Positions 1 through 43,408 of a stretch of DNA of 45,854 nt are shown here, one piece after another. Below the pieces are notes generated by a model. It was not told the origin of the DNA and ran no database searches. It was given only the letters and a program-made list of their open reading frames with translations. This DNA comes from an uncultured bacterium. GTDB taxonomy: Bacteria; Fidelibacterota; Marinisomatia; Marinisomatales; UBA1611. The number at the start of each line of letters is the position of its first letter. Within the stretch, counting starts at the first letter, position 1. The stretch lies in NCBI GenBank assembly GCA_964478995.1, contig CAYZJY010000005.1, positions 1-45,854 on the forward strand, given 5' to 3'. The translations under genes were made by a program, and so were the position numbers.

Positions 1-2
1 CA

Positions 3-509
3 AAGGCTGAGAAGTCACGTAACGAAATTGATAAGATCATCAAGCAGGGTGGACAGTTCTACCAAGATACTGCTGATACAGAAGGTCGTGGACGTTTCCC
101 TAACCAAACTAAGTTCAACGTAGCTGTTGGTGGTGGAGACTATAATAACCACGGTGGATCTTCAACTGATCTAGCAACTGCCCATGCTGCTTCAGCTGCA
201 CATACTGCTAATATCATGAGAGATCTTGGTTTAGGCGATACAGACGGATGGCAGAATTATAATGATTCCCATTCTAATGACTGGGTATCAGTCTTTGGTG
301 GCGATGTAGACGGTGGCACAATACGATCAGACGCTGGCGAATGGGGCGGTCTTTTCGGTGATGAAGAATTAGGCAGCACATTCCAAGATGGTCACTATGC
401 ATACACAGTAGTAGCAGGTGGCGGAACTGGAAGTGATGTTTACCCTCCAGTACTGTATGTAGTGGACATTGAAAACGCTGTTGATTTCAACAACGTACTT
501 GAGCCGTAG
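3..509 (+). CDS. Atypical pilin-like protein, paralogue 1 (5'-truncated by window edge)
   Basis: The frame of ORF 216..509 is open from nt 3: KAEKSRNEIDKIIKQGGQFYQDTADTEGRGRFP...WVSVFG...FQDGHYAYTVVAGGGTG...LEP*. It shares all conserved blocks with the next two genes. Confidence 0.88.
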   Translation, partial: KAEKSRNEIDKIIKQGGQFYQDTADTEGRGRFPNQTKFNVAVGGGDYNNHGGSSTDLATAHAASAAHTANIMRDLGLGDTDGWQNYNDSHSNDWVSVFGGDVDGGTIRSDAGEWGGLFGDEELGSTFQDGHYAYTVVAGGGTGSDVYPPVLYVVDIENAVDFNNVLEP

Positions 510-559
510 AAAGCTTAAAAGAAATTAGATCACAGGTGGACCTGGTCCATCTAGATTTT

Positions 560-592
560 AAGGCCTCGCCAATCGCGGGGCCTTTTCTTTTT
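560..592 (+). terminator. Intrinsic terminator after pilin-like paralogue 1
   Basis: Stem AAGGCCTCGC (560-569) / GCGGGGCCTT (575-584) with one G:U pair, loop CAATC, followed by TTCTTTTT. Confidence 0.85.
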
Positions 593-608
593 GTATCATA
601 TTGATACA
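592..608. promoter_or_regulatory. Palindromic enhancer-binding-protein site (UAS) candidate, TGT-N11-ACA
   Basis: TGTATCA-TAT-TGATACA has perfect 7-bp arms and lies about 90-105 bp upstream of the sigma54 -24 element. Confidence 0.65.
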
Positions 609-695
609 TCCTCTCCTCTTTGATCGTAACACAATTGTTCTTCAAAAATAGGTTCTCTCTCGATAAAAAAAACATCATTAGATATCTTCATGTAA

Positions 696-711
696 TGGCA
701 TAAATTTTGCT
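696..711 (+). promoter_or_regulatory. sigma54 (RpoN) -24/-12 promoter for paralogue 2
   Basis: TGGCATAAATTTTGCT has GG(697-698)-N10-GC(709-710), matches the TGGCAC-N5-TTGC consensus, and sits about 57 nt before the ATG. Confidence 0.8.
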
Positions 712-767
712 CTATTATTTGTGTATACATTTAGGCTATAAGCAATAACCGGTTAACGCATAGAAGA

Positions 768-1445
768 ATGAAAAAAACCCCCATAAATATTTTAAAAGGT
801 TCCAAGGGTAATTCGCTCATGGAATTTGCTGTTACCATAGGTCTCATGGCCATTCTCGCTGCAACGGCAGCACCAAAACTCTCCCAGATGGGTGAGAATA
901 CCAAGATGCAGAAATCTAGAAACGAGTTGGACAAACTGGCTAGACAGGCTGCAAATTTCTTTCAACAGACCGCGATCACGGAAGGTCGTGGAAGATTTCC
1001 AGGTCAAGACAAATACAATCTTCCTGTGGGAGGCCACTCCAACAATCAAGATATATTGGATGATATCCTAGATGTCTATGACTACAGCGGTAACCTGACC
1101 GATCCAGCGGATTATACATCCTACGAATCCAACCATGGTTATGACTGGGTATCGGTCTTTGGCGTGAGTAATGCTGACTTTCCAAAGCCGGTTGAGTCGG
1201 TCATGCGCTGGGATGATGAGGATGAGACGCTCCCGTGCAATGTCTGCCCACCCAACGAGACCGCCGCCAGGCTCGAATGGGCCAAATTATTTCCAGGGGG
1301 TCCTGTTGGGAGTCCCTTTCAGGATGGGCATTTTGTCTATCAAGTGGTGGCGGGAAGTGGTCACGGTTCCAAAGCGGAATCACCGACCTTGTACATAGCT
1401 GACATTGAAAATCCCAGCCAGATACACGTTATTTTACAGCCATAG
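768..1445 (+). CDS. Atypical pilin-like protein, paralogue 2 (class III signal peptide G|NSLME)
   Basis: Basic leader, KG|NSLMEFAVTIGLMAILAATAAPK (E5, hydrophobic helix, P22), GRGRFP, FQDGHF, C-terminal LQP. Confidence 0.85.
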   Translation: MKKTPINILKGSKGNSLMEFAVTIGLMAILAATAAPKLSQMGENTKMQKSRNELDKLARQAANFFQQTAITEGRGRFPGQDKYNLPVGGHSNNQDILDDILDVYDYSGNLTDPADYTSYESNHGYDWVSVFGVSNADFPKPVESVMRWDDEDETLPCNVCPPNETAARLEWAKLFPGGPVGSPFQDGHFVYQVVAGSGHGSKAESPTLYIADIENPSQIHVILQP

Positions 1446-1451
1446 CATGGG

Positions 1452-1507
1452 TGTAACAGAAAGATACGATGTCACGAAAATGGACAATATTGTAACGGTT
1501 CGAGTCA
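1452..1507. promoter_or_regulatory. Three tandem TGT(A/C)AC-headed 17-bp boxes, candidate UAS
   Basis: TGTAACAGAAAGATACG (1452-1468), TGTCACGAAAATGGACA (1470-1486, TGT-N11-ACA) and TGTAACGGTTCGAGTCA (1491-1507), upstream of the second sigma54 promoter. Confidence 0.5.
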
Positions 1508-1641
1508 AAAGAATTAAGAGAAGAGTTCAGAGGAAAAATTAAATAAGTAGAATAACAGATAGAGGGTTTCTCGAGGAAGAAAACCCTAGAAAAAGAAAAA
1601 AATGATCAATAGAGAAGAAAATATCAAGAAAATAGACGAGA

Positions 1642-1658
1642 TTGGCACAAAAATTGCT
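1642..1658 (+). promoter_or_regulatory. sigma54 (RpoN) -24/-12 promoter for paralogue 3 and the major pilin
   Basis: TTGGCACAAAAATTGCT is a near-perfect consensus with GG(1644-1645)-N10-GC(1656-1657). An IHF-like TATCAAGAAAATA lies at 1622-1634. Confidence 0.88.
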
Positions 1659-1696
1659 AATAATAGATAAATTTAAAAGACATACTGAGGAAAACA

Positions 1697-2419
1697 ATGA
1701 AAACACTAATCAGACATTTTAAAAAGGTTAACGGGCAGTCACTCGCTGAGTTCGCAGTAACAACGGCGATGATGGCTACGTTAGCAACAACGGCCGCACC
1801 AAAATTTTCTGGTGTGGGAGAAGGCGCTAAGGAAAAGAAAACGCTTGCAGATATTGATAAGATCTTAAAATCTGCAAACAACTTCTACAACACGCAGGTG
1901 ACCAAAGCTGGTCGTGGTCGTTTTCCTGGCCAATGGAAATACAATGAAGCGGTACCAACAGATGGCGGATACACATACACCTCTGACCAACAGGAGGCAG
2001 AGTATAATGTGAAACTTGCTGTCCAAGGTGTCATTGGTGAAGACGGAAGTATCACGACACAACCAACCTTTACAGGATTTGATAATACTGCGGACGCTCC
2101 TAAATGGGCCTCTTGCTTTGGAACAAACAATCCAGATGCACTGGTCCCTGAGGTTACACAAGGACAGGCCGCAGCCATCAGTACTGTAGAAGATCCAACT
2201 TCAAACTATTATTCCCAAAATGAGATAACAGAAGGCCGTGGCGCTGAAGAATTCCTTGACGGGTTCGGTGGCGAGGCGATCAAGAGTCCTTTCCAGGATG
2301 GTCACTATATATATACGGTGATCGCTGGAGCAGGTTCTGGTACACAGTCAATAGCTCCGATCATCTTCGTGGCTGACCTTGAATCTCCATCATCTTTCTG
2401 GAAAAAATTACAACCATAA
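1697..2419 (+). CDS. Atypical pilin-like protein, paralogue 3 (class III signal peptide G|QSLAE)
   Basis: SD GAGG; NG|QSLAEFAVTTAMMATLATTAAPKF; GRGRFPGQ; SPFQDGHYIYTVIAGAGSG; C-terminal LQP. Confidence 0.88.
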   Translation: MKTLIRHFKKVNGQSLAEFAVTTAMMATLATTAAPKFSGVGEGAKEKKTLADIDKILKSANNFYNTQVTKAGRGRFPGQWKYNEAVPTDGGYTYTSDQQEAEYNVKLAVQGVIGEDGSITTQPTFTGFDNTADAPKWASCFGTNNPDALVPEVTQGQAAAISTVEDPTSNYYSQNEITEGRGAEEFLDGFGGEAIKSPFQDGHYIYTVIAGAGSGTQSIAPIIFVADLESPSSFWKKLQP

Positions 2420-2486
2420 ACAATAACCAAACCAAATGAGCACACCACAAACCACAAACCAAAGCATAAAAACTAAGGAGTTAAAA

Positions 2487-2927
2487 ATGAAGAACACAAA
2501 CAAAGGATTCACACTAATCGAATTAATCATGGTCACGATCATACTAGGGATCTTGGCAGCAGTAGCGATACCACGCTACATGACCTCTGTTCAAAAGGCA
2601 GAAGAAGCAGCTGAAGACGCAGTAATTAATTCAATCAAGGCGGGTTTAGCAACATACGAAACTGAAAAACTAATGGAAAACGGTCGTCGTAGCTGGCCAA
2701 CTAACCCATGGGATGCATTAGAAACAAAACCAGCGGGTTGGACAAATGACAATGCGAATGCAGCGGATGATGGTCAATGGCGTTTTACTACAAGTACAGC
2801 AAACATCACACACATGCGTGGCGATGGTACTCTAGTTCATTGGGACTACGATAAAGGTACTAACTCAGGTGGTAACTCAGATGTTCCAGGTTCACTAGGT
2901 GCTAGACAAGACGGAGCCGGTGACTAA
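2487..2927 (+). CDS. Type IVa major pilin (MshA/PilA-like)
   Basis: SD AAGGAG before ATG 2487 (better start than 2436). MKNTNKG|FTLIELIMVTIILGILAAVAIPRY is the canonical N-methylation motif. A strong terminator follows. Confidence 0.92.
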   Translation: MKNTNKGFTLIELIMVTIILGILAAVAIPRYMTSVQKAEEAAEDAVINSIKAGLATYETEKLMENGRRSWPTNPWDALETKPAGWTNDNANAADDGQWRFTTSTANITHMRGDGTLVHWDYDKGTNSGGNSDVPGSLGARQDGAGD

Positions 2928-2970
2928 GGATCCAATCTGAATTAATTAGATAAAGATCTAACTAATATAC

Positions 2971-3006
2971 TTAAAAAGGCTCCGGCAATTCCCGGAGCCT
3001 TTTTAA
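2971..3006 (+). terminator. Strong, potentially bidirectional intrinsic terminator
   Basis: Perfect 15-bp inverted repeat TTAAAAAGGCTCCGG-CAATTC-CCGGAGCCTTTTTAA. Confidence 0.92.
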
Positions 3007-3036
3007 ATTCGGAACGAAATTCATAATCAATTAATA

Positions 3037-3531
3037 ATGAAATACACACAAATTAAAAAAGATGGAAGTGCAGCGGGATTCACCATGATGGAACTGGTGG
3101 TCACCATTGCACTCATGGGTATCCTCATGAGTTTTGCGGTTCCTGCATACAATGGTGTTGGAGAGAGAATGCAGGGAGAGCGGAATATTGCCAACATGCA
3201 TACCATCCGGGAACAATTCTTTCACTATTTTTACGAGATGCATCAAACAAGTGGCAGGATTGCACACTTTCCACCTGCGCCTACGAACGAGAATGGTCTG
3301 ATGGATGATGAATGGGCCAGTACTCCCATGGATTCTACTTTATCGCCAAGGGCGCCTAAGCATCTATTCTCGACATTTAAAGTGCCAAGGAATTCCAATA
3401 ATAAACCCTTCAAGTATGAGACCTGGCGGGATACGATCCAGGTCACGGGTGAAGTGATGCGTTACATAAAATTAGAAGACATTGATGAGGATAGTCCGTC
3501 TCACGGAAAATCCTTTACTTACTCTATATAA
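3037..3531 (+). CDS. Type IV minor pilin
   Basis: AAG|FTMMELVVTIALMGILMSFAVP prepilin motif. Confidence 0.88.
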   Translation: MKYTQIKKDGSAAGFTMMELVVTIALMGILMSFAVPAYNGVGERMQGERNIANMHTIREQFFHYFYEMHQTSGRIAHFPPAPTNENGLMDDEWASTPMDSTLSPRAPKHLFSTFKVPRNSNNKPFKYETWRDTIQVTGEVMRYIKLEDIDEDSPSHGKSFTYSI

Positions 3532-3566
3532 AACCGTATTCTTCTGGTCGAAATCACATTTTGACC

Positions 3567-4064
3567 ATGGCTAAGATCAAAAGACATATCACTACCACTA
3601 ATTTTTCAGGATTCTCCATGATGGAATTGATCCTGACGATCGTGATCCTGGGTATTTTTGCGACCGTTGCAATGACCCGGACCAGATCAGGTCTTTCGAC
3701 GATACGAGAACAGATAGCGATCGACCAGATCACCAGCGACATTGATCTAGCGAGATCCATGGCATTTGGCAAACATGAGACCATAACGATCGAATATTCA
3801 CCAGATGATGAGAGCTATGCCATCTACAGTGGAGTGGGCCAAGACAAAGAAGCAATAAGTGATTTTCCCAATAGCGATCAGGGGGTCATCTCCTTGGATA
3901 ATTCGAACATGAGGGATGTGAACCTAGTATCAGCCTCCTTTTTGAACAATTCAGAGGATCTTCAATTCTTGCCTTTTGGTGATCCGGTGTCCGGAGGTCA
4001 GATCAAGGTAAATGAAAGGACCATATACATAGAGCCAGTTACTGGCAAATGGACCGTTGATTGA
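3567..4064 (+). CDS. Minor pilin, MshC/FimT/GspH-like
   Basis: SG|FSMMELILTIVILGIFATVAM; ITSDIDLARSMA; LQFLPFGDP...IYIEPVTG C-terminus typical of FimT/MshC. ATG at 3567 (TTG 3561 is an alternative). Confidence 0.82.
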   Translation: MAKIKRHITTTNFSGFSMMELILTIVILGIFATVAMTRTRSGLSTIREQIAIDQITSDIDLARSMAFGKHETITIEYSPDDESYAIYSGVGQDKEAISDFPNSDQGVISLDNSNMRDVNLVSASFLNNSEDLQFLPFGDPVSGGQIKVNERTIYIEPVTGKWTVD

Positions 4065-4558
4065 TGAAACACATGCATGATAAAAAGATCAATGGTTTCA
4101 CATTCGTAGAGGTCATCATCGTCATGATCATTCTCTCTCTATCTTTCTTGACCTTTCTCCAGGCACTGAATACAGGAAAGACCGTGAGAGCAAGATCAGA
4201 ATTGAGGACCGTGCAAAGTGTCATAATGAATAGCATCCAGAACCAGATACGAGCGCGCAAGTTTGATGAGGGTTCTGGACCGACATGGACCACACCAAAT
4301 AGCCTCGGCAAAGATGGAAATGAGACCAACCTGAGTGACTTCGATGATATTGATGACTTCCATCAATATTCGGAGAATGAGGTAAGTGATCACCCGGGGT
4401 TCGGTATCTCTGTCTCTGTGACCTACGCAGACGTAGGCTCAGGATTCAATGTACCAGACCCTAACCAGCAGACAGATTTCAAAAGAGTGACCGTGACCGT
4501 ATCGCATGAGACAATATCAGACATGACAGACGTCATGATCATTGGGGCAGGGCTGTAA
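4064..4558 (+). CDS. mshD: Minor pilin, MshD-like
   Basis: NG|FTFVEVIIVMIIL; RARKFDE...SLGKDGNETNLSDFDDIDDFH...KRVTVTVS resembles the MshD FDE/LGxD/FxDxDD signature. Confidence 0.75.
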   Translation: MKHMHDKKINGFTFVEVIIVMIILSLSFLTFLQALNTGKTVRARSELRTVQSVIMNSIQNQIRARKFDEGSGPTWTTPNSLGKDGNETNLSDFDDIDDFHQYSENEVSDHPGFGISVSVTYADVGSGFNVPDPNQQTDFKRVTVTVSHETISDMTDVMIIGAGL

Positions 4559-4559
4559 A

Positions 4560-5123
4560 ATGTTATCTCGTTCAAGTAAGGGATTTACCATGGTGGAGAT
4601 CCTTGTTGTGATCATCGCGGTGGGTCTGATCGGTTCCATATCGGTGATCATGCTCTCTCAGGGATCGGAGATATTTGTTAGTGAGACGAATAGGCAGGGA
4701 TTCGTGAGTGAGGCGAGATCTGCTTTCTGGAGGGCCATGAGAGATACCCATGGTCAAGCCTCACCAACTGTATTCACCTCATCTGGTCAGAATTATCTCT
4801 ATCTGGAGAATGGAAAAGGTGAAAAGAAAGAATTTCAAATTGTATCACCTGACCGTTTCAATTATAGGTTCGGTGGCACAGGGGATTATAATCTATTATC
4901 AAATTCTTTGGGATCTTCACAGTCTGGTGGATTCAAATTCTATGATGACAATTTCGATGTCATCTCCCTCTCTTCAAATCCATTGAGTGAGGCACAGGCC
5001 AAAATGGTCCGTCTGTCAAAATTGGAACTGACCTTTGTCAAAGACACGGACGTTCTTTCTCTTTCTTCATTTGTGTTCCCCCAAAATTTCAGATTTGGGC
5101 AAAAAATGAGTTATCATCAATGA
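4560..5123 (+). CDS. Minor pilin, MshO/PilW-like
   Basis: ATG at 4560; KG|FTMVEILVVIIAVGLIG...RQGFVSEARSAFWRAMRD; located after the mshD-like gene. Confidence 0.75.
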   Translation: MLSRSSKGFTMVEILVVIIAVGLIGSISVIMLSQGSEIFVSETNRQGFVSEARSAFWRAMRDTHGQASPTVFTSSGQNYLYLENGKGEKKEFQIVSPDRFNYRFGGTGDYNLLSNSLGSSQSGGFKFYDDNFDVISLSSNPLSEAQAKMVRLSKLELTFVKDTDVLSLSSFVFPQNFRFGQKMSYHQ

Positions 5124-7033
5124 GGATCAAAGGCAGATCCAAGTTAGGCTCAGAGTCGGGGATGATCCTCATGGCCACGACCATGGGGGTTTTCATTTTA
5201 TTGAGCATATTTGCATTCTATCTGGCCCGGTTTTCTGTCACGGAGTCCCGGACCGGTGGCTATCACATGCTAGATATCAAGGCACGGAATCTTGCTCTGA
5301 CCGGAATGGACCACTGGATTCATTCATACGGATCAAATCGAAACATATCCCAGGTCTCTGGCTCATTGAATAATGGAAATTATGCTGTATCAACTGATAC
5401 ATCACATGATGAGGGCGGAGGAGATCTCCCCTATGCCAATTACCTTACCATCAAGAGCATGGCGACCATCGATGATGTTGAAAGAAACATCAGGCTGATC
5501 ATGTCGTCCATGCCAGAGGCATTTTGTTTTTCTTATTACGGGCAGAACCAGGGTGGACAGGTCTTTGCTGAGAATTTGGGCAACATCTCAGGCGACATTT
5601 ATCATAATGGAAACATCAATACGGATGTTGTCTCATCAGGCATAAAATATAATAGTACGGGATCTGGTGGGGTCCAACTCACATCTCCACCGTCATTTCC
5701 TGAATTGGTCTCTACTGCATATGAAGATCTGCTTACCGCTTCCGCTTCTGCTTCCGGCCCCTATGTGAATCGTGCAATAAACTTCAACAATAGTTCAGCA
5801 CGGGTCAATATAGGCAATAGTCATGATATTAATTATGGTACCCATGGACAAAGAACCATTGAGGTCTGGTTCAGGGTATCTGATAAGACTCGTAATCATA
5901 AACAGACCATCTATGAGGAAGGGGGTGGTACAAGAGGCATAAATATCTATATCCATAATAATGGTGTATTGTATGGTGGAGGGTGGAATGTACCTAATGG
6001 AGAAAGTGGTTGGAGTGGTGCCTGGGTAACCTGGAATGGGGTTCAAGATAATACTTGGCATCATGTTGCTGTTACATTGAATGGTGATAACCAGGTGGAT
6101 ACAAATGATGGGGCAGATGCATTTAAAATGTATGTTGATGGAGACCTGAAAGGTCAGAGAGCAGGATCTCAACTATGGCAACATAGTGGGAACATAAAGG
6201 TCGGTAGGAATGGTGGTACAAAGTTCCATGATGGAAACAATGGTGGTGGTGGAGAGCCTTTTTATGGTAAGATCGATGAATTCAGGATATGGAACGTGGA
6301 ACGAACGGCTGCCCAGATCAACGATACAAAGGACAAGACATTGGATCTGAATGATGCTGATGGTCTTGTTCTTTACTATGATTTTCAAGAGAATTCAGGT
6401 ACAACGGCTACTGATCTAAAAGGGCCTACGTATAACCATGGAAGCATTACATATGGAACGTGGACATCGGGCCCCGATCTAGCGGACATGCTAGGAACAT
6501 CCTATGCATCCACTACCATAAATTTATCTGGATACGATGACAATCGACTTCTTGTCAATAGCGACCTTTCATTATCAAACGTGACCGTAAATGGTCCAGG
6601 ATCCATTGTTGTAGATGGGAGTCTAACGATCAACTCAAATTCGTTGATCAAGAAAAATGTCAATCTGATCTGCAACGGGAACCTTACCATTGCCTCTTCA
6701 ACGATCGGTCGTAGCATCAGGAAGCCAGCCATAATGTATTCTAAGGGGACAATATCCATTGATCAATCAACGGTAAATGGACTCATTATTGCAAAGGACG
6801 CAGGGTCCTCTTGTACCTTATCTTCGACCACGGTTAAAGGAGCAATATTGAATCATGGATCCTCGTTCTCTTTGGGGAACAGTTCTAGCGTTGTTGGGTC
6901 TGTCGTCTCGACTCATTCAGTTGACCTTACGGATAATAATTCTTCCATTACAAAGGGCAGTCTTCCCCCTTTTTACGGTCTCAACATAGGTCTAAGGCCG
7001 ATGGTCGTTCCTGGCTCCTTTTTGGAATTCTAA
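5120..7033 (+). CDS. PilX/MshP-like pilin fused to a LamG (ConA-like) domain and a beta-solenoid-like C-terminus; putative tip adhesin
   Basis: SG|MILMA lacks E5 (PilX/GspK-like); KARNLALTG; LamG motifs TIEVWF, WHHVAVT, MYVDG, FYGKIDEFRIWN, LVLYYDFQE; repetitive V/I-x-G strands in the C-terminus. Confidence 0.8.
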   Translation: MRIKGRSKLGSESGMILMATTMGVFILLSIFAFYLARFSVTESRTGGYHMLDIKARNLALTGMDHWIHSYGSNRNISQVSGSLNNGNYAVSTDTSHDEGGGDLPYANYLTIKSMATIDDVERNIRLIMSSMPEAFCFSYYGQNQGGQVFAENLGNISGDIYHNGNINTDVVSSGIKYNSTGSGGVQLTSPPSFPELVSTAYEDLLTASASASGPYVNRAINFNNSSARVNIGNSHDINYGTHGQRTIEVWFRVSDKTRNHKQTIYEEGGGTRGINIYIHNNGVLYGGGWNVPNGESGWSGAWVTWNGVQDNTWHHVAVTLNGDNQVDTNDGADAFKMYVDGDLKGQRAGSQLWQHSGNIKVGRNGGTKFHDGNNGGGGEPFYGKIDEFRIWNVERTAAQINDTKDKTLDLNDADGLVLYYDFQENSGTTATDLKGPTYNHGSITYGTWTSGPDLADMLGTSYASTTINLSGYDDNRLLVNSDLSLSNVTVNGPGSIVVDGSLTINSNSLIKKNVNLICNGNLTIASSTIGRSIRKPAIMYSKGTISIDQSTVNGLIIAKDAGSSCTLSSTTVKGAILNHGSSFSLGNSSSVVGSVVSTHSVDLTDNNSSITKGSLPPFYGLNIGLRPMVVPGSFLEF

Positions 7034-7095: not shown

Positions 7096-9108
7096 ATGAT
7101 ACGTAGCATTGTAATAACAATTGTTTTTTCCGTGATGTTGAATGGTAAAGATTATGAGCCCAGCTGGAATTCTCTAGATTCTCGTCCAACCCCACAGTGG
7201 TTCAAGGATGCGAAATTTGGGATCTTCATTCACTGGGGTCTTTATTCAGTACCGGCATGGGGTCCCAAGGATGCCTATGCGGAATGGTATCTGAATGGTC
7301 TGAACTCTGGCGATACTGCTCGCTTGAGATATCATGAGGAAAATTATGGAAAGGATTTCCCCTATAGAGGCTTCATCGATCTGTTCAAGGCCAATGATTA
7401 TGATCCAGATCAGTGGGCTAGTTTATTCAAGCGCTCAGGTGCAAGATATGTGGTCTTGACCTCAAAACACCATGATGGATTTTGTCTGTGGCCAAGTAAA
7501 GAAAGTAAGGGATATAATTCTGTAAGTGGTGCAGCAGGTAGGGACCTTCTAGGAGATCTGAATAGATCGGTCAAGAAAGTAGGTCTCAGGTCAGGTCTTT
7601 ATTATTCGCTTTATGAATGGGACCATCCAGATTACCCAGACAATACATCAAAATATGTGGACGAATACATGATCCCTCAGTTCAAGGATGTGGTACAGCG
7701 CTATGCACCAGAGATCATCTTCTCTGATGGGGAATGGGATAGAGGGAGCGAGGAATGGAAGAGTGAGGAGTTCTTGGCCTGGTTGTACAATGAGTCCAAT
7801 GCGCCTGAGGATGTGGTTGTGAATGACCGCTGGGGTGGAGAGACAAGATTCAAGCATGGTGGATATTACTCTACCGAATATGACCCCTCTTCCAACCATA
7901 TCGATGAGGATTTCATCCACCGTGGATGGGAGGAGTGCCGTGGAATTGGACGGTCCTTTGGGTTTAACAGAAATGAGGATCCAGAGGACTACAGCACATC
8001 TGAAGAATTGATACGTTTGCTCGTCGACATTGTCAGCAGAGGTGGTAATCTACTTCTGAACATTGGTCCTAGGTCCGATGGTACGATCCCAGAGCTCATG
8101 GTCAATCGCTTAATGGACATGGGCGCATGGCTAGAAAAAAATGGAGAGGCCATATATGGTACCACGGTCAACAGGAAGATCTCATCTGGAAAGGTAAAGT
8201 TCACTCTGTCCAAGGATCGCAAGCATCTTTTTGCCTTCATTGAAAAGATCCAATCAGGGAAGTTTGTCATTAGGGGGATAAGTGGTGCTGGCAATGGCCA
8301 GATCGTCCATCTTGGAAAGAACAAGAGATTGAACTGGCGGAACGTTCGTGATGATCTTGTCATTGAGATCCCAAAAAAGATCCACTCTCTCCTTGGTGAC
8401 CCACCGGTACATGTATTGAAGATACCGGTGCTGCCATACCTCGATGATCCCGAGGTGGAGATCGTGATGAACAACGATAATGCAGATGTCACCATGTCTT
8501 CAAAGGTCGAATCTGCTCAAATACGATATGCTTTTGGCGATAATGTTGATGATCTGGTCAACTTTGTTGATTACAAAGGGTCATTCAGAGTTGATCGGCC
8601 TCTCATGTTGAACTTCCAGTCATATGCCGAGGGTAGGCAGTCCAGTCGCATGGTGACAGTGCCCATAGAGATATTGAAAGCAAAGAATGGACTAATGAAA
8701 GAAACCTTTTTGGGTAAGTGGGAGAACTGTGATCAGATGATCATGGGCCAACCCATTGAACAGACCGTGTCCTTTGATTTTTCGATCGATGAGAGTAGAG
8801 AGAGTGATTTTGGCCATTCTTTTAAAGGGTACTTGAAGATCGAGGAGGATGGAACCTATGAATTCCAAACCACATCAGATGATGGGTCAAAGCTATCGAT
8901 CGATGGACTCCCAATTGTTGATAATGATGGTCTACATGGTAGGGAGACGGTCGCAGGAGAGATCCCCTTGCGGGCTGGTCTACATGTGATCAAGGTACTT
9001 TATTTTGAAAGAGGGGGTCAAGAATCTCTTGATGTAAAATGGAGAGGCCCTGGCTTTGACTGGAGATCCATTCCCTCCTTCAAACTTTTTAGAACAAATG
9101 ATCTGTAA
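7096..9108 (+). CDS. Alpha-L-fucosidase (GH29) with C-terminal PA14 domain, secreted
   Basis: WFKDAKFGIFIHWGLYSVP, LTSKHHDGFCLW, FSDGEW, NDRW, GGNLLLNIGP; PA14 motifs TSDDGSKL, DNDGLHG, YFERGG; N-terminal signal peptide. Confidence 0.93.
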   Translation: MIRSIVITIVFSVMLNGKDYEPSWNSLDSRPTPQWFKDAKFGIFIHWGLYSVPAWGPKDAYAEWYLNGLNSGDTARLRYHEENYGKDFPYRGFIDLFKANDYDPDQWASLFKRSGARYVVLTSKHHDGFCLWPSKESKGYNSVSGAAGRDLLGDLNRSVKKVGLRSGLYYSLYEWDHPDYPDNTSKYVDEYMIPQFKDVVQRYAPEIIFSDGEWDRGSEEWKSEEFLAWLYNESNAPEDVVVNDRWGGETRFKHGGYYSTEYDPSSNHIDEDFIHRGWEECRGIGRSFGFNRNEDPEDYSTSEELIRLLVDIVSRGGNLLLNIGPRSDGTIPELMVNRLMDMGAWLEKNGEAIYGTTVNRKISSGKVKFTLSKDRKHLFAFIEKIQSGKFVIRGISGAGNGQIVHLGKNKRLNWRNVRDDLVIEIPKKIHSLLGDPPVHVLKIPVLPYLDDPEVEIVMNNDNADVTMSSKVESAQIRYAFGDNVDDLVNFVDYKGSFRVDRPLMLNFQSYAEGRQSSRMVTVPIEILKAKNGLMKETFLGKWENCDQMIMGQPIEQTVSFDFSIDESRESDFGHSFKGYLKIEEDGTYEFQTTSDDGSKLSIDGLPIVDNDGLHGRETVAGEIPLRAGLHVIKVLYFERGGQESLDVKWRGPGFDWRSIPSFKLFRTNDL

Positions 9109-9125
9109 AAAAATAGGAGTAGAGC

Positions 9126-10484
9126 ATGGCAAAGAAAATTAGCCGAAGAGAATTCATGAGGACGACCGCTGTGGCGGGGGGAGCGGCAGCCATGATGCCT
9201 CAAGCACTCTTTTCATCTCGGATGAAGACAAGGGTAAAGTTAGGATTCATTGGTACCGGTCTAAGAGGCCAGTGGATGCTATGGCTTGCAGCCAAATATC
9301 CGGAGGTGGAGATCCCAGCGATATGTGACATCGATGATGGGATGATCGGATCCGCATTGAAGATCTTGAAGGATGGCGGAAAGCCAGAGCCTAAGGTCTA
9401 CAAGAAAAATGAAGAGGATTTTAGAAACTTGGTCAAGAATGAAGATCTCGATGGTGTCTATATTGCGACACCTTGGGAGTGGCATCACCCCATGGCCATT
9501 GCCGCAATGAAGGCGGGTATGCATGTCGGGACAGAGGTACCAGCGGCCCTTACAGTGGATGAATGCTGGGACCTTGTGAATGTATCTGAGAGAACAGGCA
9601 AATTATGCATGATCATGGAAAATGTCTGCTACCGCCGTGATGTCATGGCCGTTCTGAACATGGTCAGACAGAACATGTTTGGTGAGTTGCTTCATTGCCA
9701 AGGAGGCTATCAGCATGATCTTAGGCATGTAAAATTCAATGATGGGATCAATCCATATGGAGGAGGCGTCGAGTATGGTGAAAAGGGATATTCAGAGGCG
9801 AAATGGAGGACACAGCATTCCATTGATCGCAATGGAGACCTATATCCAACCCATGGCATTGGACCGGTTAGTCCCATGCTAGACATTAATCGTGGTAACC
9901 GAATGGTCCACCTGACATCGACAGCAACACAGGCCAGAGGCCTACATAAATATATTGTGGACCATGGGGGCGCTGATCATCCAAATGCATCTGTGGATTT
10001 CAAATGCGGAGACATTGTGACCACTGTCATAAAATGTGACCAAGGCCAGACCATCATGCTAAGCCACGATACAAATAATCCAAGACCATACTCACTTAAT
10101 TTTAGGGTCCAGGGTACGCTTGGGATATGGCAGAAGGATGCGCGTTCACTCTATATAGAGGGATTGAGCAAGGATGAGCACCGGTGGGAGGATGAAGATC
10201 CATACCTCAAGGAGCATGATCATCCTCTGTGGAAACGGTTCCAAGATCAGGCCGCAGGGTCGGGACATGGAGGAATGGACTTTTTTATTTTACGAGCCTT
10301 CATTGAGTCATTGAAGGGAGCAGAACCGGTCTTGGATGTCTATGACGCTGCCAGCATGAGTGTCATATCTCCACTGAGTGAGAGATCGATCCGTTTGGGA
10401 AGCGCTGCTGTGAGGGTCCCTGATTTTACTCGCGGAAAGTGGAAGAATAATCCACCCATATTTGGTTTGAACGATCGAGCATAG
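9126..10484 (+). CDS. GH109 NAD+-dependent alpha-N-acetylgalactosaminidase-like protein (Gfo/Idh/MocA fold), Tat-exported
   Basis: SRREFM Tat motif; GFIGTGLRG Rossmann motif; ATPWEWH, EVPAA, ENVCY, YPTHG, GHGGMD. Confidence 0.88.
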   Translation: MAKKISRREFMRTTAVAGGAAAMMPQALFSSRMKTRVKLGFIGTGLRGQWMLWLAAKYPEVEIPAICDIDDGMIGSALKILKDGGKPEPKVYKKNEEDFRNLVKNEDLDGVYIATPWEWHHPMAIAAMKAGMHVGTEVPAALTVDECWDLVNVSERTGKLCMIMENVCYRRDVMAVLNMVRQNMFGELLHCQGGYQHDLRHVKFNDGINPYGGGVEYGEKGYSEAKWRTQHSIDRNGDLYPTHGIGPVSPMLDINRGNRMVHLTSTATQARGLHKYIVDHGGADHPNASVDFKCGDIVTTVIKCDQGQTIMLSHDTNNPRPYSLNFRVQGTLGIWQKDARSLYIEGLSKDEHRWEDEDPYLKEHDHPLWKRFQDQAAGSGHGGMDFFILRAFIESLKGAEPVLDVYDAASMSVISPLSERSIRLGSAAVRVPDFTRGKWKNNPPIFGLNDRA

Positions 10485-10488
10485 ATCA

Positions 10489-12222
10489 ATGATATTATCT
10501 ACGTTGGACTGGTACATTGTTGGGGCCTATTTTTCACTCACCTTGGCCATGGGAATCTGGGCATCAAAAAATGCAGGAAGCGACAGAAGATCATTCTTTC
10601 TTGCTGGAAGGAACATGCCGTGGTGGTTATTGGGCATCAGCATGGTCGCAACCACCTTCTCAACAGATACTCCTAATCTGGTCACTGATCTCGTTCGCCG
10701 CGATGGAGTTTCAGGAAATTGGGCATGGTGGGCATTCCTCTTGACGGGCATGCTGACCGTATTTGTTTATGCGAGGCTCTGGCATCGTTCAGGTGTGCTT
10801 ACAGACATTGAGTTTTACGAATTGAGATATGGGGGAAGGCCCGCTGCATTTCTAAGAGGATTTAGGGCCCTGTATCTTGGGCTTGTTTTCAACATTCTTG
10901 TCATGGGAGCTGTGAGTCTGGCCGCAATCAAATTTGGCGAGATAGTTCTAGGACTTCCTGGCTGGGTCACACTCACTGTGGCCTGTTCGATCACTCTAGT
11001 CTATTCGATGTTAGGTGGCTTGAAGGCAGTGATCATGACGGATTTCTTGCAATTCACTCTTGCCATGATCGGTTCCATATGGGCGACCATGTACATCTTG
11101 GGTCTTCCAGAGATAGGCGGACTTTCAAATCTGATCGCTCATTCCAATGTTATTGACAAACTCCCTCTTATTCCAGATCTTTCAGACCCAAATGTCTGGG
11201 TCCCTGTGCTCTTGGTTCCTCTGGCTGTACAATGGTGGGCAAGTTATTATCCTGGTGCTGAGCCAGGTGGTGGGGGGTATATCGCACAGAGAATGTTCTC
11301 TGCCAAAGATGAGTCGAATGCTGTTGGTGCGACACTATTGTTCAACATTGCGCACTATGCGATCAGACCTTGGCCATGGATATTGATCGCTCTGGCTTCA
11401 TTGGTCATCTTTCCAGAACTATCAGACATCCAAAAAGCATTTCCGCTCCTACCTTCAGACAAACTGGGTCACGATGTTGCCTATCCTGCGATGCTAACAC
11501 TATTACCATCCGGGTTACTTGGATTGGTGTCGGCATCATTGATAGCTGCATTCATGAGTACGATGTCAACGCAATTGAACCTTGGTGCAAGTTATCTTGT
11601 GAATGATCTTTACCATCGATTCTTTAAGCCCAGTGCCTCAGAGAGGGAGTTGGTCATGGTGGGTAGGGTCTTTACGATCTTGTCGATCATCCTCGGTGCA
11701 GGTCTTGGTCTTGTTTTGACAAATGCAGGACAGGCATTTGAACTTTTGCTCATGATCGGTGCTGGAACGGGTTTGATATACATACTTCGTTGGTTTTGGT
11801 GGCGTATCAATGCTCTGACTGAGATCGTTGCCATGGTAAGTTCCTTGATCGTTGCAGGATATTTAAATTTTTCAGGTTTGGAGATGGAGGGCTGGCTAAA
11901 GATCGTATGTGGTACCTTGATCACCACAGTTGTCTGGGTCTTGACCGCCTACCTCAGCCCGCCAGAGGCAGAGGATACCCTTAGAAACTTTGTGAGAAAA
12001 GTAAACCCAGGGGGTCCAGGTTGGAGACAATTTTCAAATGATGTTTCAACTGAACCATGGCCAGTGCCAAAGGGAATTTTGATGATGTTATTGGGTTCTT
12101 TTTCCGTCTACTCAATTCTTTTGGGTGTAGGACAATTGATCTATGGTCATGTCTATCCTGGGATCTTCATTTGCTCTCTTAGCATCATGAGTTCAATGGC
12201 ACTGGTAAAAATTTGGAAATAA
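10489..12222 (+). CDS. Sodium:solute symporter (SSS family), probable sugar transporter
   Basis: FFLAGRNMPWWLLGISMVATTF, QRMFSAK, AAFMST; many transmembrane helices. Confidence 0.92.
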   Translation: MILSTLDWYIVGAYFSLTLAMGIWASKNAGSDRRSFFLAGRNMPWWLLGISMVATTFSTDTPNLVTDLVRRDGVSGNWAWWAFLLTGMLTVFVYARLWHRSGVLTDIEFYELRYGGRPAAFLRGFRALYLGLVFNILVMGAVSLAAIKFGEIVLGLPGWVTLTVACSITLVYSMLGGLKAVIMTDFLQFTLAMIGSIWATMYILGLPEIGGLSNLIAHSNVIDKLPLIPDLSDPNVWVPVLLVPLAVQWWASYYPGAEPGGGGYIAQRMFSAKDESNAVGATLLFNIAHYAIRPWPWILIALASLVIFPELSDIQKAFPLLPSDKLGHDVAYPAMLTLLPSGLLGLVSASLIAAFMSTMSTQLNLGASYLVNDLYHRFFKPSASERELVMVGRVFTILSIILGAGLGLVLTNAGQAFELLLMIGAGTGLIYILRWFWWRINALTEIVAMVSSLIVAGYLNFSGLEMEGWLKIVCGTLITTVVWVLTAYLSPPEAEDTLRNFVRKVNPGGPGWRQFSNDVSTEPWPVPKGILMMLLGSFSVYSILLGVGQLIYGHVYPGIFICSLSIMSSMALVKIWK

Positions 12223-13268
12223 GCACCCCAGGAAGGATATGCTTATTTGGTGAGCATCAGGATTACCTAGGACTTCCTGTGATCGCGATGGCGATCTCAC
12301 TAAGAGCCAACATGGTTGGCGAAAAGAGAACCGATCAGGAGGTCATCATTCATAAACCAGACATCGGTGAGACTGAACGATTCTTGATCAGTGATACTGC
12401 CTATCAAAGGCAAAGAGATTATTTCAAGAGTGGCATCAATATTTGTAAGAGAGAGGGACTCCGGTTCAGCCATGGCTTTGAATGTGAAATAAGGAGCGAG
12501 ATACCGATAAAGGCAGGGACTAGTAGTTCCTCTGCGATCGTTGTAAGTTGGATCAATTTTTTATCTCAGATGTGCGATGAACCTTTGACATGGACAAATG
12601 AAAAGATCGGTGAACTTGCATATGCAGCGGAGGTGTCAGAGTTTCAAGAGCCAGGCGGGATGATGGATCAATATGCAACTGCGATCGGACAAATGGTCTA
12701 TGTCGAATCTGAACCGTTGACATCTGTTGAACCATTGAGTTCGCCCCTTGGAAGTTTTGTTCTGGGTGACTCTGGAGACCAGAAAGATACCCTAAGCATA
12801 TTAGCACATTGCAGAGACATGAGGATCGATGTCTTGAATAAGATAAGACCTTTCAATCCAGGATTTGATCTTCACTCTTGTGGCCATGATCTAGACCTAT
12901 CGAACTTAAATGATCAGGAGAGAATATTATTTAAAAGCACCCTGGATAATAGAGACCTGTTAAGGGACGCAAAGGCTGAGTTACTTGGTAGCGACATGGA
13001 CCATGAACGTGTTGGTGCATTATTAAACCAACATCATGTGATACTCCGAGATCACTTGTATGTCAGTACTGACAAGATAGAGAGAATGATCGATGCAGCA
13101 ATGAATGCAGGTGCATTAGGGTGCAAGATCAATGGGTCTGGAGGTGGAGGATGCATGTTTGCCTATGCACCAAATAATCCAGATGCTGTTGTAGATGCGA
13201 TCGAAGCGGTTGGTGGAAAAGCATATTTGATAAATGCAGATGAAGGAACCAAAGTATTAACTTCATAG
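12213..13268 (+). CDS. GHMP-family anomeric sugar kinase (galactokinase/GalNAc kinase-like)
   Basis: PGRICLFGEHQDY, PIKAGTSSSSA, GMMDQ, KINGSGGGG; TTG start overlaps the upstream gene. Confidence 0.88.
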   Translation: MEISTPGRICLFGEHQDYLGLPVIAMAISLRANMVGEKRTDQEVIIHKPDIGETERFLISDTAYQRQRDYFKSGINICKREGLRFSHGFECEIRSEIPIKAGTSSSSAIVVSWINFLSQMCDEPLTWTNEKIGELAYAAEVSEFQEPGGMMDQYATAIGQMVYVESEPLTSVEPLSSPLGSFVLGDSGDQKDTLSILAHCRDMRIDVLNKIRPFNPGFDLHSCGHDLDLSNLNDQERILFKSTLDNRDLLRDAKAELLGSDMDHERVGALLNQHHVILRDHLYVSTDKIERMIDAAMNAGALGCKINGSGGGGCMFAYAPNNPDAVVDAIEAVGGKAYLINADEGTKVLTS

Positions 13269-13290
13269 GATAATTACAGGAAAGATCGAG

Positions 13291-17392
<4,102 letters not shown>

Positions 17393-18340: not shown

Positions 18341-21300
18341 ATGAGATCACATAAGATAATATCATTTCTATTATCCGCCCTTGCGGTAAATCTATTTGCC
18401 TCAGAGTGGGTAGACCTAGGGGTTTCACGTCCAACTGAACCGGTTTGGAATGTGAATGTGATATCTGATAATAACATTGAGATATCCTTCCAACTTCAGG
18501 GTTATGATCTTGAGACTCTTCAGAGTGAGAACAATAGGATCAGTTTTCCAGGTGGTGTACCCATCCTGAATGAAGGGGCACCAAATCTACCACGCATGGC
18601 GCGCTCCATCATCATTCCAGACCTCGCTCACATGGAGTTGTCTGTCACGGAGACTGAATATGTAGACATGCAAATTTCAGATGTCGAGTCATCAAAAGGT
18701 AACTTGACCCGCGATGTGGACCCTGCAACAATACCCTATACTTATGGAAAAGTGTATGAACTTGATGAGTTCTATCCTGAAAACATTGTTTTCTTGAGAG
18801 AACCATATATCCTGAGATCATTGAGAGGACAGACGGTAGTATTCCAACCCATTCAATATAATCCAGTCCAGCGCACGCTGAGGGTATATACCCAGATAAA
18901 TATTTCTATTCAACAAAATGGCGTCAGTCAGATCAATCCTCTGACTCAGCGGCCACCACATATTGGTTCTAGAGAATTTGAACACATGTACAAAGATCAC
19001 TTTATTAACTATCCAGAGGATGAGAGGTATGATGTCCTTAGTGAGCAAGGCCCAATGCTGGTGATCAGTTATGGTGATTTCATGGATGAGATGCAGACCT
19101 TCGTAGACTGGAAGAATTATAAGGGAATACCAACCCAGATGATGGATATAGCTGATATTGGTGATGAGAATGACATGGCCCAAATGATAGAGGATCAATA
19201 CTATGAAAACGGCATTGCATTTGTTCTACTTGTGGGGGATATAGCACAAATAGAGACCATTCGCCGTTCAAATGGAGCAGGCTCAAATAGTCCATCTGAT
19301 AATTCACTTACATTTGTTGCAGGCGATGACTATTACCCAGATTTAATTATTGGACGTTTTTCTGCCGAGACAAATGAGCATGTTGAGACAATGGTCAATA
19401 GAACCATTGCCTATGAAATGGATCCAGACCCGATGGCTGAGTGGTATAAGAAAGGTTCGGGTTTTGCATCCAACCAAGGTCCTGGCGATGATGGTGAAGA
19501 TGATGATGAGCATTTGGATAATATTCGTGATCTCTTACTGGATTATACCTACATCGAGATAGATCAGGTCTATGACCCAGGTGGTACAGTTGCAGAAGGG
19601 GAGGCTGCCATAAATGAAGGTAGGTCCATTATTAATTATACAGGACATGGTTCCAATGGGTCTTGGGGGAATGGCTGTCCCATGAATAATACTGATGTAA
19701 ATAATTTGGTCAATGCAGGAAAGTGGCCATTCATTTGGTCTGTCGCTTGCGTGAATGGAGAGTTCCACCAAGGGACCTGCTATGCTGAGACCTGGCTCCG
19801 AGCAACAGACGATTCCGATGGAAGCCCAACCGGTGCCATCGCCACACTGATGTCTACGGTTAATCAAGCATGGAATCCACCCATGGAGGGTCAGGATGAG
19901 ATGAATGCAATATTTGTTGAGTCATACTCCGATAACATAAAAAGAACTTTTGGTGGTCTATCATTCAATGGCATGAATCAGATGAATGATAGTTATGGAT
20001 CACAAGGCTATGATGAGACCTATTATTGGACCCTATTTGGAGATCCTTCAGTAGTAGTCCGTTCTGATACTCCAACTGAAATGGTGGTCAGCCATGATGG
20101 TGTGATCATAATTGGTGCAACTGACTTGAACATTGATGCGGGAGTAAATGGTGCATTGGTCGCAGTATCTAGAGATGGGCAACTTCTAGCATCTGGATAC
20201 ACTAATGAAACAGGGACTGTTGACCTCACATTCGAATCTCCATTGGATGTCCCTGGTGAAATTGACATTGTTGTTACAGCCTATAATAAGATCCCTTATG
20301 AGGAAACTTTAAATATTATTGCTCCTGAAGGAGCATACATGCTTTTGGAAGACCTTATCGTAAGTGGAGGGGATGACGAGATATTGGACTATGGTGAGAC
20401 AGGATATTTTTACACTGTTTTTGAGAATGTGGGTCAGGACCCCTCTGGTGAACTTTCATTTACAATTTCTCATCTAGGGTCGATGATCAATGTGATCACA
20501 GATGCAATTACCCAAGAGTCAGTTGAGGCTGGAGGTCAGGCCACTGTTGGACCATTTGAGATTGAGGTCAGTTGGAATGTGGAAGATGGCTCGTACATAC
20601 CGCTTCTAGTGACCGCAATGAATGATGCAGAAGAATGGGAATATGAGACTGAAGTTCCTGTAGAGGCACCTGCCTTTCTGCTCGTATCATCTGAACTAGT
20701 TGATAATGGTAACGGTACTCTAGACCCTGGTGAATCGATTACAATGCAACTTGCTCTGGAAAATATTGGTAATTCTCCGGTTAGTTATCCCACGTTTGAG
20801 GCAATGACCAGTGACTCATACTTGACCATTGGAAATGTAGTCAGTGATAACGATTACTGGTGGGAAATGAATGATGTGATCAATGTTACCATTGAGATCA
20901 CTGCCTCCAATGATGCACCCATTGGCTATTCCTCTCTCATAGCCTTGACCATTGGGTCTATCAATACCACCTATGAAAATGTTTTTCCTGTGCCAATTAC
21001 ACTTGGCATCATGTTTGAGGATTTTGAGACAGGTAATTTTACCTCTTTTGACTGGAACCACGGTGGTGACGCTGAGTGGACGATCGATACGGACGCATAT
21101 TCAGGTGGTTTTTCAGCACGATCAGGTGACATCGACCATGGCCAAACCTCTGAACTATCCATCATGATGAATGTATTGTACGAGGGTGCAATCCAGTTCT
21201 GGTCCAAATCATCATCTGAACAGGGAGCTTCAGGTACGATATATGATTATCTGGAGTTTTACATTAATGATCAATCTCAAGAATTGATCATTGGTGGTGA

Positions 21301-43357: not shown

Positions 43358-43408
43358 TTGTGTCAAATATACTGAAAAATTATTAATGAATTGATTAGGG
43401 TTAATAGA

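Follow-up and report, generated by a model that had tools for sequence, protein, structure and literature searches.

What kind of filament, if any, is built from a row of pilin-like proteins that agree almost perfectly in some blocks and hardly at all in others? The question is raised by positions 3 to 2,419 of contig CAYZJY010000005.1 (assembly GCA_964478995.1), from an uncultured bacterium of the lineage Fidelibacterota; Marinisomatia; Marinisomatales; UBA1611. We analysed a stretch of 45,854 nucleotides of this contig (positions 1 to 45,854 of the forward strand), hereafter the window. A preliminary description had seen here a tandem array of three or more atypical pilin paralogues and proposed that they are interchangeable subunits of an undescribed filament type. 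We conclude that they are probably lineage-specific, divergent type IV pilins, putative subunits of the filament body, carried mainly by one Marinimicrobia (SAR406) family and by large phages.

Three genes of the family lie at the start of the window and are named by the positional class (A to D) to which each belongs:

3..509, + strand: class B paralogue, truncated at its 5' end; 168 residues are seen, and the leader and about 45 N-terminal residues are missing
768..1445, + strand: class C paralogue; 225 residues, 14-residue leader, predicted cleavage between G14 and NSLMEF
1697..2419, + strand: class D paralogue, the universal family member; 240 residues, 13-residue leader, predicted cleavage between G13 and QSLAEF

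The open reading frame at 3-509 is open at its 5' end because the window begins at the end of the contig. The blocks that the preliminary description found in all three genes are borne out: in a three-way protein alignment 42 columns are invariant, among them GRGRFP, W-S-FG, FQDGH, D-E and the terminal L-P, and identity to gene 3-509 is 46% and 34% for the other two window paralogues. The precursor lengths of 225 and 240 residues given there agree with the open reading frames 768-1445 and 1697-2419, and the two cleavage sites are likewise confirmed from the sequence as leader ends. In a search of its own genome the 225-residue protein finds its paralogues at E-values of 5.5e-37 to 1.9e-41, and the relatedness therefore lies well past chance. 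Two further paralogues (881-1558 and 66-761, both on the minus strand) are found on another contig of the source genome, C46, directly downstream of pilC. The array, although real, was thus undercounted: it comprises at least five copies, in the order A, B, gap, B, C, D, with the assembly gap inside the repeated genes. The paralogues do not stand at the head of the locus, as had been supposed, but between pilC and the canonical pilins, and single contigs of three relatives (L017, L030 and L025) run in the same way from pilC through the paralogues to the canonical pilins.

All family members share one precursor plan, in which a basic leader of 13-22 residues ending in Gly is followed by (N/Q/S/A)-S-L-x-E-F. 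The mature part opens with an Ala/Thr-rich first helix (alpha1) bearing Glu5 and Pro22; the rest is a conserved core interrupted by two hypervariable loops, V1 and V2. The leader lengths of 13-22 residues are those of the four complete copies of the source genome. The motif G-x-S/T-h-x-E-h served to select 106 sequences (73 cellular and 33 phage) of the family, in which mature proteins measure 192-243 residues; every one of them has Glu5 and 102 have Pro22. The unusual Thr/Ala content of the helix, remarked on earlier, is confirmed: 8-12 of 21 residues of the N-terminal part of alpha1 (alpha1N) are Ala or Thr in the paralogues, whereas the five canonical pilins that follow them have 2-5 such residues in 21.

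The family was described at the outset as unrecognised, and it remains so in curated collections: no Pfam, NCBIfam or PHROG model matches it above cut-off, and no strong full-length match to a characterised family exists in these three. Pfam matches below cut-off to PsaN and DUF2897 (E 0.005-0.12) were dismissed as chance helix matches. We found no account of this family or of Marinimicrobia pilins in the literature, most subscription journals being outside coverage. A profile of 50 family sequences nevertheless matches solved type IVa pilins, namely Geobacter PilA-N (E 1.8e-5), Myxococcus PilA (E 1.2e-3) and MshA (E 2.1e-3). These matches cover alpha1 (in MshA, alpha1 only) and lie in register with the predicted cleavage site. 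The same profile gave no sequence match to type IVb pilins. The start of the mature protein had also been likened to that of Tad pseudopilins, and the G-x-S-x-x-E-F start is indeed superficially like that of TadE and TadF. That link does not hold: none of the three window proteins matches TadE (PF07811) at E<=1, alpha1 aligns in register with type IVa pilins, and the ATPase of the locus is of the PilB type, with a TadA-family score of 54.9 bits against a cut-off of 373. As far as sequence can tell, the paralogues belong with the type IV pilins, as a divergent branch, and not with the Tad pseudopilins.

The machinery encoded beside the array is, from its sequence, an ordinary type IVa/MSHA-like PilB/PilC/PilD/secretin set, and an undescribed filament type is not supported. 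C46 carries, in the same direction as the array, genes for a response regulator, a prepilin peptidase (A24 with its N-terminal domain), a PilB-type ATPase, a sigma-54 activator and a PilC/GspF protein. On the opposite strand lie a 973-residue AAA_22 ATPase/PilM-like fusion, a PilO-like protein and, at the contig end, a PilQ-type secretin. PilB is the best-scoring assignment of the ATPase, and PilQ that of the secretin. For the ATPase the highest-scoring model is TIGR02538 (PilB, 571.6 bits), with GspE at 542 bits; it also carries the MshE-related motif for cyclic di-GMP, NF053729 (49.3 bits, cut-off 38). The MshL score of the secretin is 89.3 against a cut-off of 250.2, and PilC also scores as GspF (313.6 bits). 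T2SSE with MshEN, T2SSF, Peptidase_A24 and the secretin are linked on C46 and follow the same order on single contigs of L017, L025 and L030.

Two further observations concern pilus machinery. The 973-residue fusion (G000:C46:9356-12277, locus L008) resembles, at its N-terminus, XrtA/PEP-CTERM-associated AAA ATPases of the ExeA/MshM type (E 4.8e-47) and, at its C-terminus, PilM-like proteins including the Akkermansia Amuc_1101 family (E 2.6e-18). At G000:C3:9334-22328 the source genome has another type IV pilus system, with a PilT-like ATPase, a secretin and a second PilB; its pilin has the best GFxxxE match.

Across relatives the family resolves into four classes, defined by their alpha1 and arranged in the fixed order pilC-A-B(n)-C-D-canonical pilins. 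Class A adjoins pilC, class B occupies the middle of the array in one to three copies, and class D comes last, directly before the canonical pilins; in some lineages (L025) class D stands alone. Class C occurs in close relatives only and nests within class B. In a tree of 74 rows, D (30 rows), A (15 rows) and C (8 rows) form clades with support of 99, and gene 3-509 groups with class B genes. The subunits are therefore not freely interchangeable, as had been proposed, because they occupy fixed positional classes, each with its own alpha1 and conserved across genomes.

In contrast to these fixed positions, the two loops evolve rapidly. V1 measures 25-61 residues and V2 16-49 residues; within a class they are 22-51% identical, with gaps of up to 35%, whereas the core blocks are 59-100% identical. 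Gene 3-509 and the class B copy on C46 are 56-86% identical in the core and 17% in V2, where 56% of positions are gaps. The class D gene of the source genome and its nearest relative agree at 95-100% of core positions, 78% of V1 and 71% of V2, and in close class D pairs alpha1 is 96-98% identical compared with 41-78% in the loops. The hypervariable loops of the preliminary description are thus real, and they were compared with the core for nonsynonymous (dN) and synonymous (dS) substitution rates, as had been proposed. Loop dN is about 3 to 14 times core dN, and region-wide dN/dS is higher in the loops (0.06-0.40) than in the core (0.014-0.085), but it never exceeds 1; loop dS was saturated and gave no estimate in 9 of 17 pairs. 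The loops are fast-evolving between orthologues also, and region-wide dN/dS gives no sign of positive selection. Fixed orthologues with conserved loops had been named as a finding that would count against variable subunits: the fixed orthologue classes exist, but their loops vary.

In the closest class D pair (1697-2419 and L009:2140-2868) core dS is 0.37 and loop dS 1.29, while several other pairs have no such difference. Such a difference may be a trace of recombination or gene conversion, by which the core is made uniform or loops are brought in.

Every family gene that could be assessed is preceded by a promoter-like element. A site matching TGGCAC-N5-TTGCW with at most two mismatches precedes all 71 genes whose available upstream region reaches 150 nt or more, two genes with shorter flanks being excluded from the count; 19 sites are perfect, 37 have one mismatch and 15 have two, and the element is located 74-125 nt before the Gly codon. 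Such sites occur in 7.7% of 2000 random 260-nt stretches, and both strands of the 45.8 kb window together hold 17 as background. The elements within the array, with the hairpins that flank its genes and the canonical pilin gene pil163 that follows class D, are:

560..584, + strand: terminator-like stem-loop of 10 pairs with a T run, after the class B gene
696..711, + strand: sigma-54 -24/-12-like element TGGCAT-N5-TTGCT, one mismatch, 57 nt before the class C start codon
1643..1658, + strand: sigma-54 -24/-12 element TGGCAC-N5-TTGCT, the sole site in the window without mismatch, 39 nt before the class D start
2969..3008, no strand assigned: strong, terminator-like symmetrical stem-loop of 17 pairs flanked by A and T runs, after pil163

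A tighter pattern, TGGCA[CT]N5TTGC[AT], has seven matches in the 2.0 Mb genome, three of them at the array (including 696-711). The source genome encodes rpoN, and a sigma-54 activator is encoded within the locus. Given the hairpins after the class B gene and after pil163, class D and pil163 appear to share one transcription unit. Eighteen RNA runs from 13 studies, metatranscriptomes of seawater, contain part of window 1-5200. The genes of classes B, C and D and pil163 are covered by RNA contigs of four runs, one from each of four studies, and some of these contigs have no mismatch at all; cover is almost absent at 523-696, falls off past about 2960 in all four runs and is near zero at 3130-5200. 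Gaps in contig cover prove nothing by themselves, and we take them as a weak hint that they mark transcript ends.

Following the paralogues, the window encodes five canonical GFxxxE pilins and a Laminin_G_3 protein:

2436..2927, + strand: pil163, a canonical short type IV pilin (GFTLIELIMV); N_methyl E 1.3e-7, TIGR02532 31.4 bits (cut-off 16.3)
3037..3531, + strand: pil164, a second canonical pilin (GFTMMELVV), with a homologue after pil163 in most viral loci
3561-4064, + strand: GspH/ComGD/FimT-like minor pilin
4061-4558, + strand: PilV/GspI-like minor pilin
4542-5123, + strand: further GFxxxE minor pilin
5120..7033, + strand: protein of 637 residues with an N-terminal hydrophobic helix and Laminin_G_3 (E 5e-19)

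The 637-residue protein sits where a large tip subunit of the PilX/GspK type would be expected and may have that role. The true start of pil163 is likely the ATG at 2487, which gives MKNTNKG before the Phe, a leader of seven residues; this start is kept in homologues. Aligned by hhalign, the A-D family and the pil163 family match with 93.7% probability (E 1.9e-7, 85 columns), and the alignment pairs EGRGRFPGQ of the former with NGRRSWP of the latter directly after alpha1. The A-D family is therefore likely descended from a pil163-like pilin, most likely by duplication. The two families have in common alpha1 and the motif G-R-x-x-(F/W)-P, and pil163 is co-inherited with class D in phages. pil163 differs from A-D in its Phe-first mature start (G before FTLIELIMV), its leader of 5-8 residues, its length of about 135-145 residues, the lack of V1 and V2 loops and its wider distribution in the bacterial family.

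Structure prediction was consistent with a pilin-type architecture. The AlphaFold models of class C and class D (mean predicted local distance difference test scores of 78.7 and 86.4) each have a helix of about 55 residues (16-72 and 17-71) and a C-terminal sheet of three to four strands. Compared by VIA-align with a library of 48,161 chains, pilins and pseudopilins fill the first 15 of 50 rows for the class C model and the first 18 of 50 for the class D model. The chain 9iuf_A, from the type IVb pilus of enterotoxigenic Escherichia coli (ETEC), ranks first for class C (Z 5.1, 128 residues aligned, root-mean-square deviation 4.0) and fourth for class D (Z 4.7), with Z values tied with those of many type IVa pilins and pseudopilins. 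We read the models as having a pilin-type architecture with a globular part that lacks a close solved relative.

The family is abundant in sequence data from the sea, and its bacterial carriers lie mainly in one family. Among 8000 candidates scored from marine metagenomes, at least 4273 clusters (90% identity) match at E<=0.001, and none of 120 clusters among the matches listed carries a Pfam domain. At 50% identity there are 444 representatives, 97 of them with E<=1e-30, a compact sequence space. Within a phylum sample of 301 genomes, 18 have a match: the source genome, 13 of 24 others of its own family and four elsewhere, two of these four in alpha1 only. Within the bacterial family itself the pilin family is present in 24 of 41 genomes and 11 of 15 genera. 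Among species-representative genomes, 42 loci were found, of which 20 are titled Marinimicrobia or Neomarinimicrobiota, 16 'bacterium' only and six otherwise. The six (L010, L030, L034, L048, L049 and L050) come from metagenome-assembled genomes labelled Balneolaceae, Methanobacteriota archaeon, Gammaproteobacteria, Nitrospinaceae, Crocinitomicaceae and Dehalococcoidia, and their contigs are probably mis-binned or mislabelled contigs of Marinimicrobia or phages.

Copy number varies within this range. Tandem class B copies encoding identical proteins are found at L011:2038-3738, L017:8936-10657, L022:1061-2851 and L023:8845-10503, and the duplicated class B DNA (700-920 bp including flanks) is 95.6-98.9% identical. 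On a contig of a single-cell assembly, identical class D genes are inverted around two small pilin genes (L039:176-961, + strand, and L039:3858-4643, - strand), which may be either a real inverted duplication or a chimeric amplification artefact. Genus g4, from the same bacterial family, has an expanded pil163 type instead, with up to 15 matches in G244, and the expanded genes are interleaved with divergent class D-like copies (G244:C5:219911-230020, on the contig of L038; L044:9647-13538; G188:C1:17666-23200; G172:C65; 15, 8 and 7 matches). Expansion of pilin genes at this locus therefore seems to be a wider habit, with the subunit type differing by genus.

The other carriers of the family are viral. 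Unnamed or auto-named 'GspG C-terminal' clusters of the ESM Atlas that are labelled viral served as a lead to a scan of IMG/VR and not as evidence. In that scan 49 contigs (L051-L099) were found to carry exactly one family gene each, always of the class D type. A pil163 homologue (38-67% identical) follows in 44 of the 49, and then usually a pil164 homologue, as at L060:9983-14873 and L069:9968-11069. On none of the 49 contigs were pilB, pilC, pilD, the activator or the LamG gene found. Two viral flanks were looked at and both are phage-like: one encodes a phage RNA polymerase beta' (E 3.8e-99), head maturation proteases, a DNA ligase and an exonuclease, the other PhoH and an endonuclease. Among five whole viral records a terminase is found in one, and a PilB match above cut-off in none; completeness estimates imply genomes of about 185-200 kb. 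The 33 distinct viral sequences all belong to the class D clade, where they form at least four groups that alternate with cellular genes, and they are up to 83% identical to cellular class D. Most viral copies have the variant TGGTAC-N5-TTGTA upstream, at the same distance as in cellular genes, and an element with at most two mismatches precedes 28 of 43 viral genes, against the 7.7% of random stretches. Phage evasion, suggested earlier as a motive for loop variation, is a reasonable putative explanation, and the more pertinent given the class D copies in phages.

Phage-borne pilins have a precedent. PMC12952977 describes FimU-like proteins of prophages (P-FimU, in F10-like prophages of Pseudomonas) that are built into the host pilus and keep out phages binding at the pilus tip; other phages have PilA-like genes (P-PilA, in Xylella prophages). 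These are likewise homologues of host pilins carried by phages; the IMG/VR contigs differ in having a two- or three-gene module with a new family, estimated genomes of about 185-200 kb and a sigma-54-like promoter variant.

Several results count against the view that A-D are type IV pilins of the filament body. The residue at +1 is N, Q, A or S and never Phe in the 73 cellular and 33 phage sequences (cellular N 36, Q 26, A 6, S 5; phage N 20, Q 10, A 3). alpha1N is marginally hydrophobic, with a mean Kyte-Doolittle value of 0.94-1.54 compared with 2.08-2.64 in canonical pilins. The N_methyl model (PF07963) gives one protein 13 bits against a cut-off of 21.2 and leaves the others unmatched, and TIGR02532 gives no match to the paralogues. 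The best VIA-align Z scores, 5.1 for class C and 4.9 for class D, fall short of 7-8, which the tool gives as its noise level. With Foldseek, neither the class C model against PDB nor the class D model against BFVD had a match at E<=0.001. The structural check proposed at the outset thus yielded pilin-like models with pilins as their nearest neighbours in VIA-align, but no Foldseek match. The RNA contigs cannot rank expression by their depth, nor can they prove transcript ends. The end of C46 and the start of the window contig (C5) have no exact overlap, and their putative adjacency rests on synteny in relatives and not on the assembly.

Chief among the alternatives is that pil163 builds the filament and that the A-D proteins are accessory (minor-type) pilins of low abundance that prime, cap, decorate or regulate it, as MshB beside MshA would suggest by analogy. 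With its seven-residue leader and near-invariant alpha1, pil163 is a textbook candidate for a short major pilin, and 28 of the 41 genomes in the bacterial family have it, among them members of genera such as g5 and g6 in which A-D was not found. As pil163 is canonical and more widely spread, the A-D family may be accessory, and in genus g4 pil163-type genes, not A-D, have multiplied. An accessory role sits poorly with a dedicated sigma-54 promoter-like element for each A-D gene, with RNA contigs that cover A-D genes in all four metatranscriptomes, with an alpha1 nearly invariant within each class and with the separate set of H/I/J/K-like minor pilins already encoded downstream. We regard it as unlikely.

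Rather less probable still is a set of freely interchangeable cassettes that provide antigenic-type variation of the surface of a single filament, selected by phages or grazers. The contrast between loops and core, with its 3- to 14-fold difference in dN, the variable number of class B copies with their recent tandem duplicates and the class D copies in phages are all as such a system would have them. Yet the copies keep to fixed positional orthologue classes with class-specific alpha1, every copy is full-length with its own promoter and no silent cassettes were found; region-wide loop dN/dS does not rise above 1, and no invertible or recombination element was seen, although none was specifically looked for.

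Finally, that the proteins form no filament at all, being surface proteins or secreted proteins, processed by the peptidase, for which the class III signal serves only as a means of export, or type II secretion-like pseudopilins, is very improbable: alpha1N is weakly hydrophobic, the large globular part has no close structural relative, and PilC and the ATPase do score as GspF and GspE, but the GspG model TIGR01710 gives 14.5 bits for the 225-residue protein against a cut-off of 88.85 and leaves the others unmatched, no T2SSG Pfam match appears at E<=1, the ATPase and secretin fit PilB and PilQ better, and conserved Glu5 and Pro22, with a gene position between pilC and the pilin operon, are expected of a polymerising pilin.

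Divergent pilins of the filament body, the reading that we prefer, can be set beside known systems. With the type IVa major pilins (PilA of Geobacter, Myxococcus and Pseudomonas, and MshA) the family shares a homologous alpha1 in register, Gly-1, Glu5 and Pro22, a predicted long alpha1 with a C-terminal sheet, adjoining pilB, pilC and pilD, and sigma-54 promoter-like elements with an activator; pilA is under sigma-54/PilR control in Pseudomonas, Myxococcus and Geobacter. Unlike those pilins, A-D proteins begin with N, Q, S or A in place of Phe, have leaders of 13-22 and not 5-7 residues, mature lengths of 192-243 residues, an Ala/Thr-rich alpha1N and a globular part without sequence relative or close fold relative, and no curated model describes them. 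Type IVb pilins are defined by a long leader, a variable +1 residue and a mature protein of about 190 residues or more, and A-D proteins likewise have a long leader, a non-Phe +1 residue and a large mature protein, as in the CofA/longus type of ETEC and TcpA. They differ from these in that the machinery scores as type IVa PilB/PilQ, that no sequence match was obtained and that cysteines are not conserved in A-D.

Also comparable are pili in which one machine polymerises more than one body-type pilin: Thermus PilA4 and PilA5 form wide and narrow pili, and Streptococcus sanguinis PilE1 and PilE2 form a heteropolymeric pilus. Both pairs are among the structural neighbours of the models (6xxd, 6xxe and 8pfb). 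The SAR406 system is unlike them in its number of subunits, four classes encoded by at least five genes, and in the sigma-54 promoter-like element that precedes each gene.

On this basis a working scheme can be proposed. The sigma-54 activator of the locus would switch on all copies together, and the PilD of the locus would cleave each leader after Gly. The products would be polymerised by one machine as filament-body subunits, beside pil163 or mixed with it. alpha1 and the core would be buried, and the strong constraint on alpha1 within each class suggests many packing contacts; V1 and V2 would form the exposed surface, and the different classes and B copies would give the pilus different surfaces.

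A bolder extension is offered tentatively, and we consider it doubtful. A-D proteins and pil163 would together be the body subunits of a mosaic or switchable pilus whose surface is set by sigma-54-driven paralogues and which would be the main battleground with large SAR406 phages. Phages that use the pilus, or compete at it, would bring their own module of D, pil163 and pil164 with a host-type promoter and would re-coat the pili of infected cells, shutting out rivals. Such a conflict may drive both the divergence of the loops and the expansions, of A-D in some genera and of the pil163 type in others.

The remainder of the window provides context for the organism. Directly after the pilus genes, at 7096-17392, lies a glycan-use cluster encoding an alpha-L-fucosidase with a PA14 domain, a GH109 enzyme, a sodium:solute symporter, a galactokinase, a nucleotidyl transferase and a GH2 beta-galactosidase, and a sulfatase with an F5/8 type C domain is encoded at 36240-38180; cluster and sulfatase fit a particle- or polysaccharide-attached lifestyle. 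The window also encodes a 1098-residue C25 (gingipain-type) peptidase with a C-terminal dockerin domain (18341-21637) and a YHYH protein with a type IX secretion sorting tail (43391-45160).

In the dark ocean and in its low-oxygen waters, few uncultured bacteria are as abundant as SAR406 (Marinimicrobia). Because no family model covers A-D, annotation pipelines give these proteins as 'hypothetical'. Type IV pilins as such are already known; what is new is a divergent, unmodelled pilin family with an unusual N-terminus, organised as an ordered array of several paralogues with sigma-54 promoter-like elements and found also in large ocean phages. If our reading is right, the sequence rules for type IV pilins would widen to admit Asn or Gln at +1 and an Ala/Thr-rich alpha1, and the loci of relatives, with one to at least five copies, would offer a natural series in which to see how a single pilus machine copes with several subunits of the body type. 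The family would also link a surface structure of the host to genes carried by large ocean phages.

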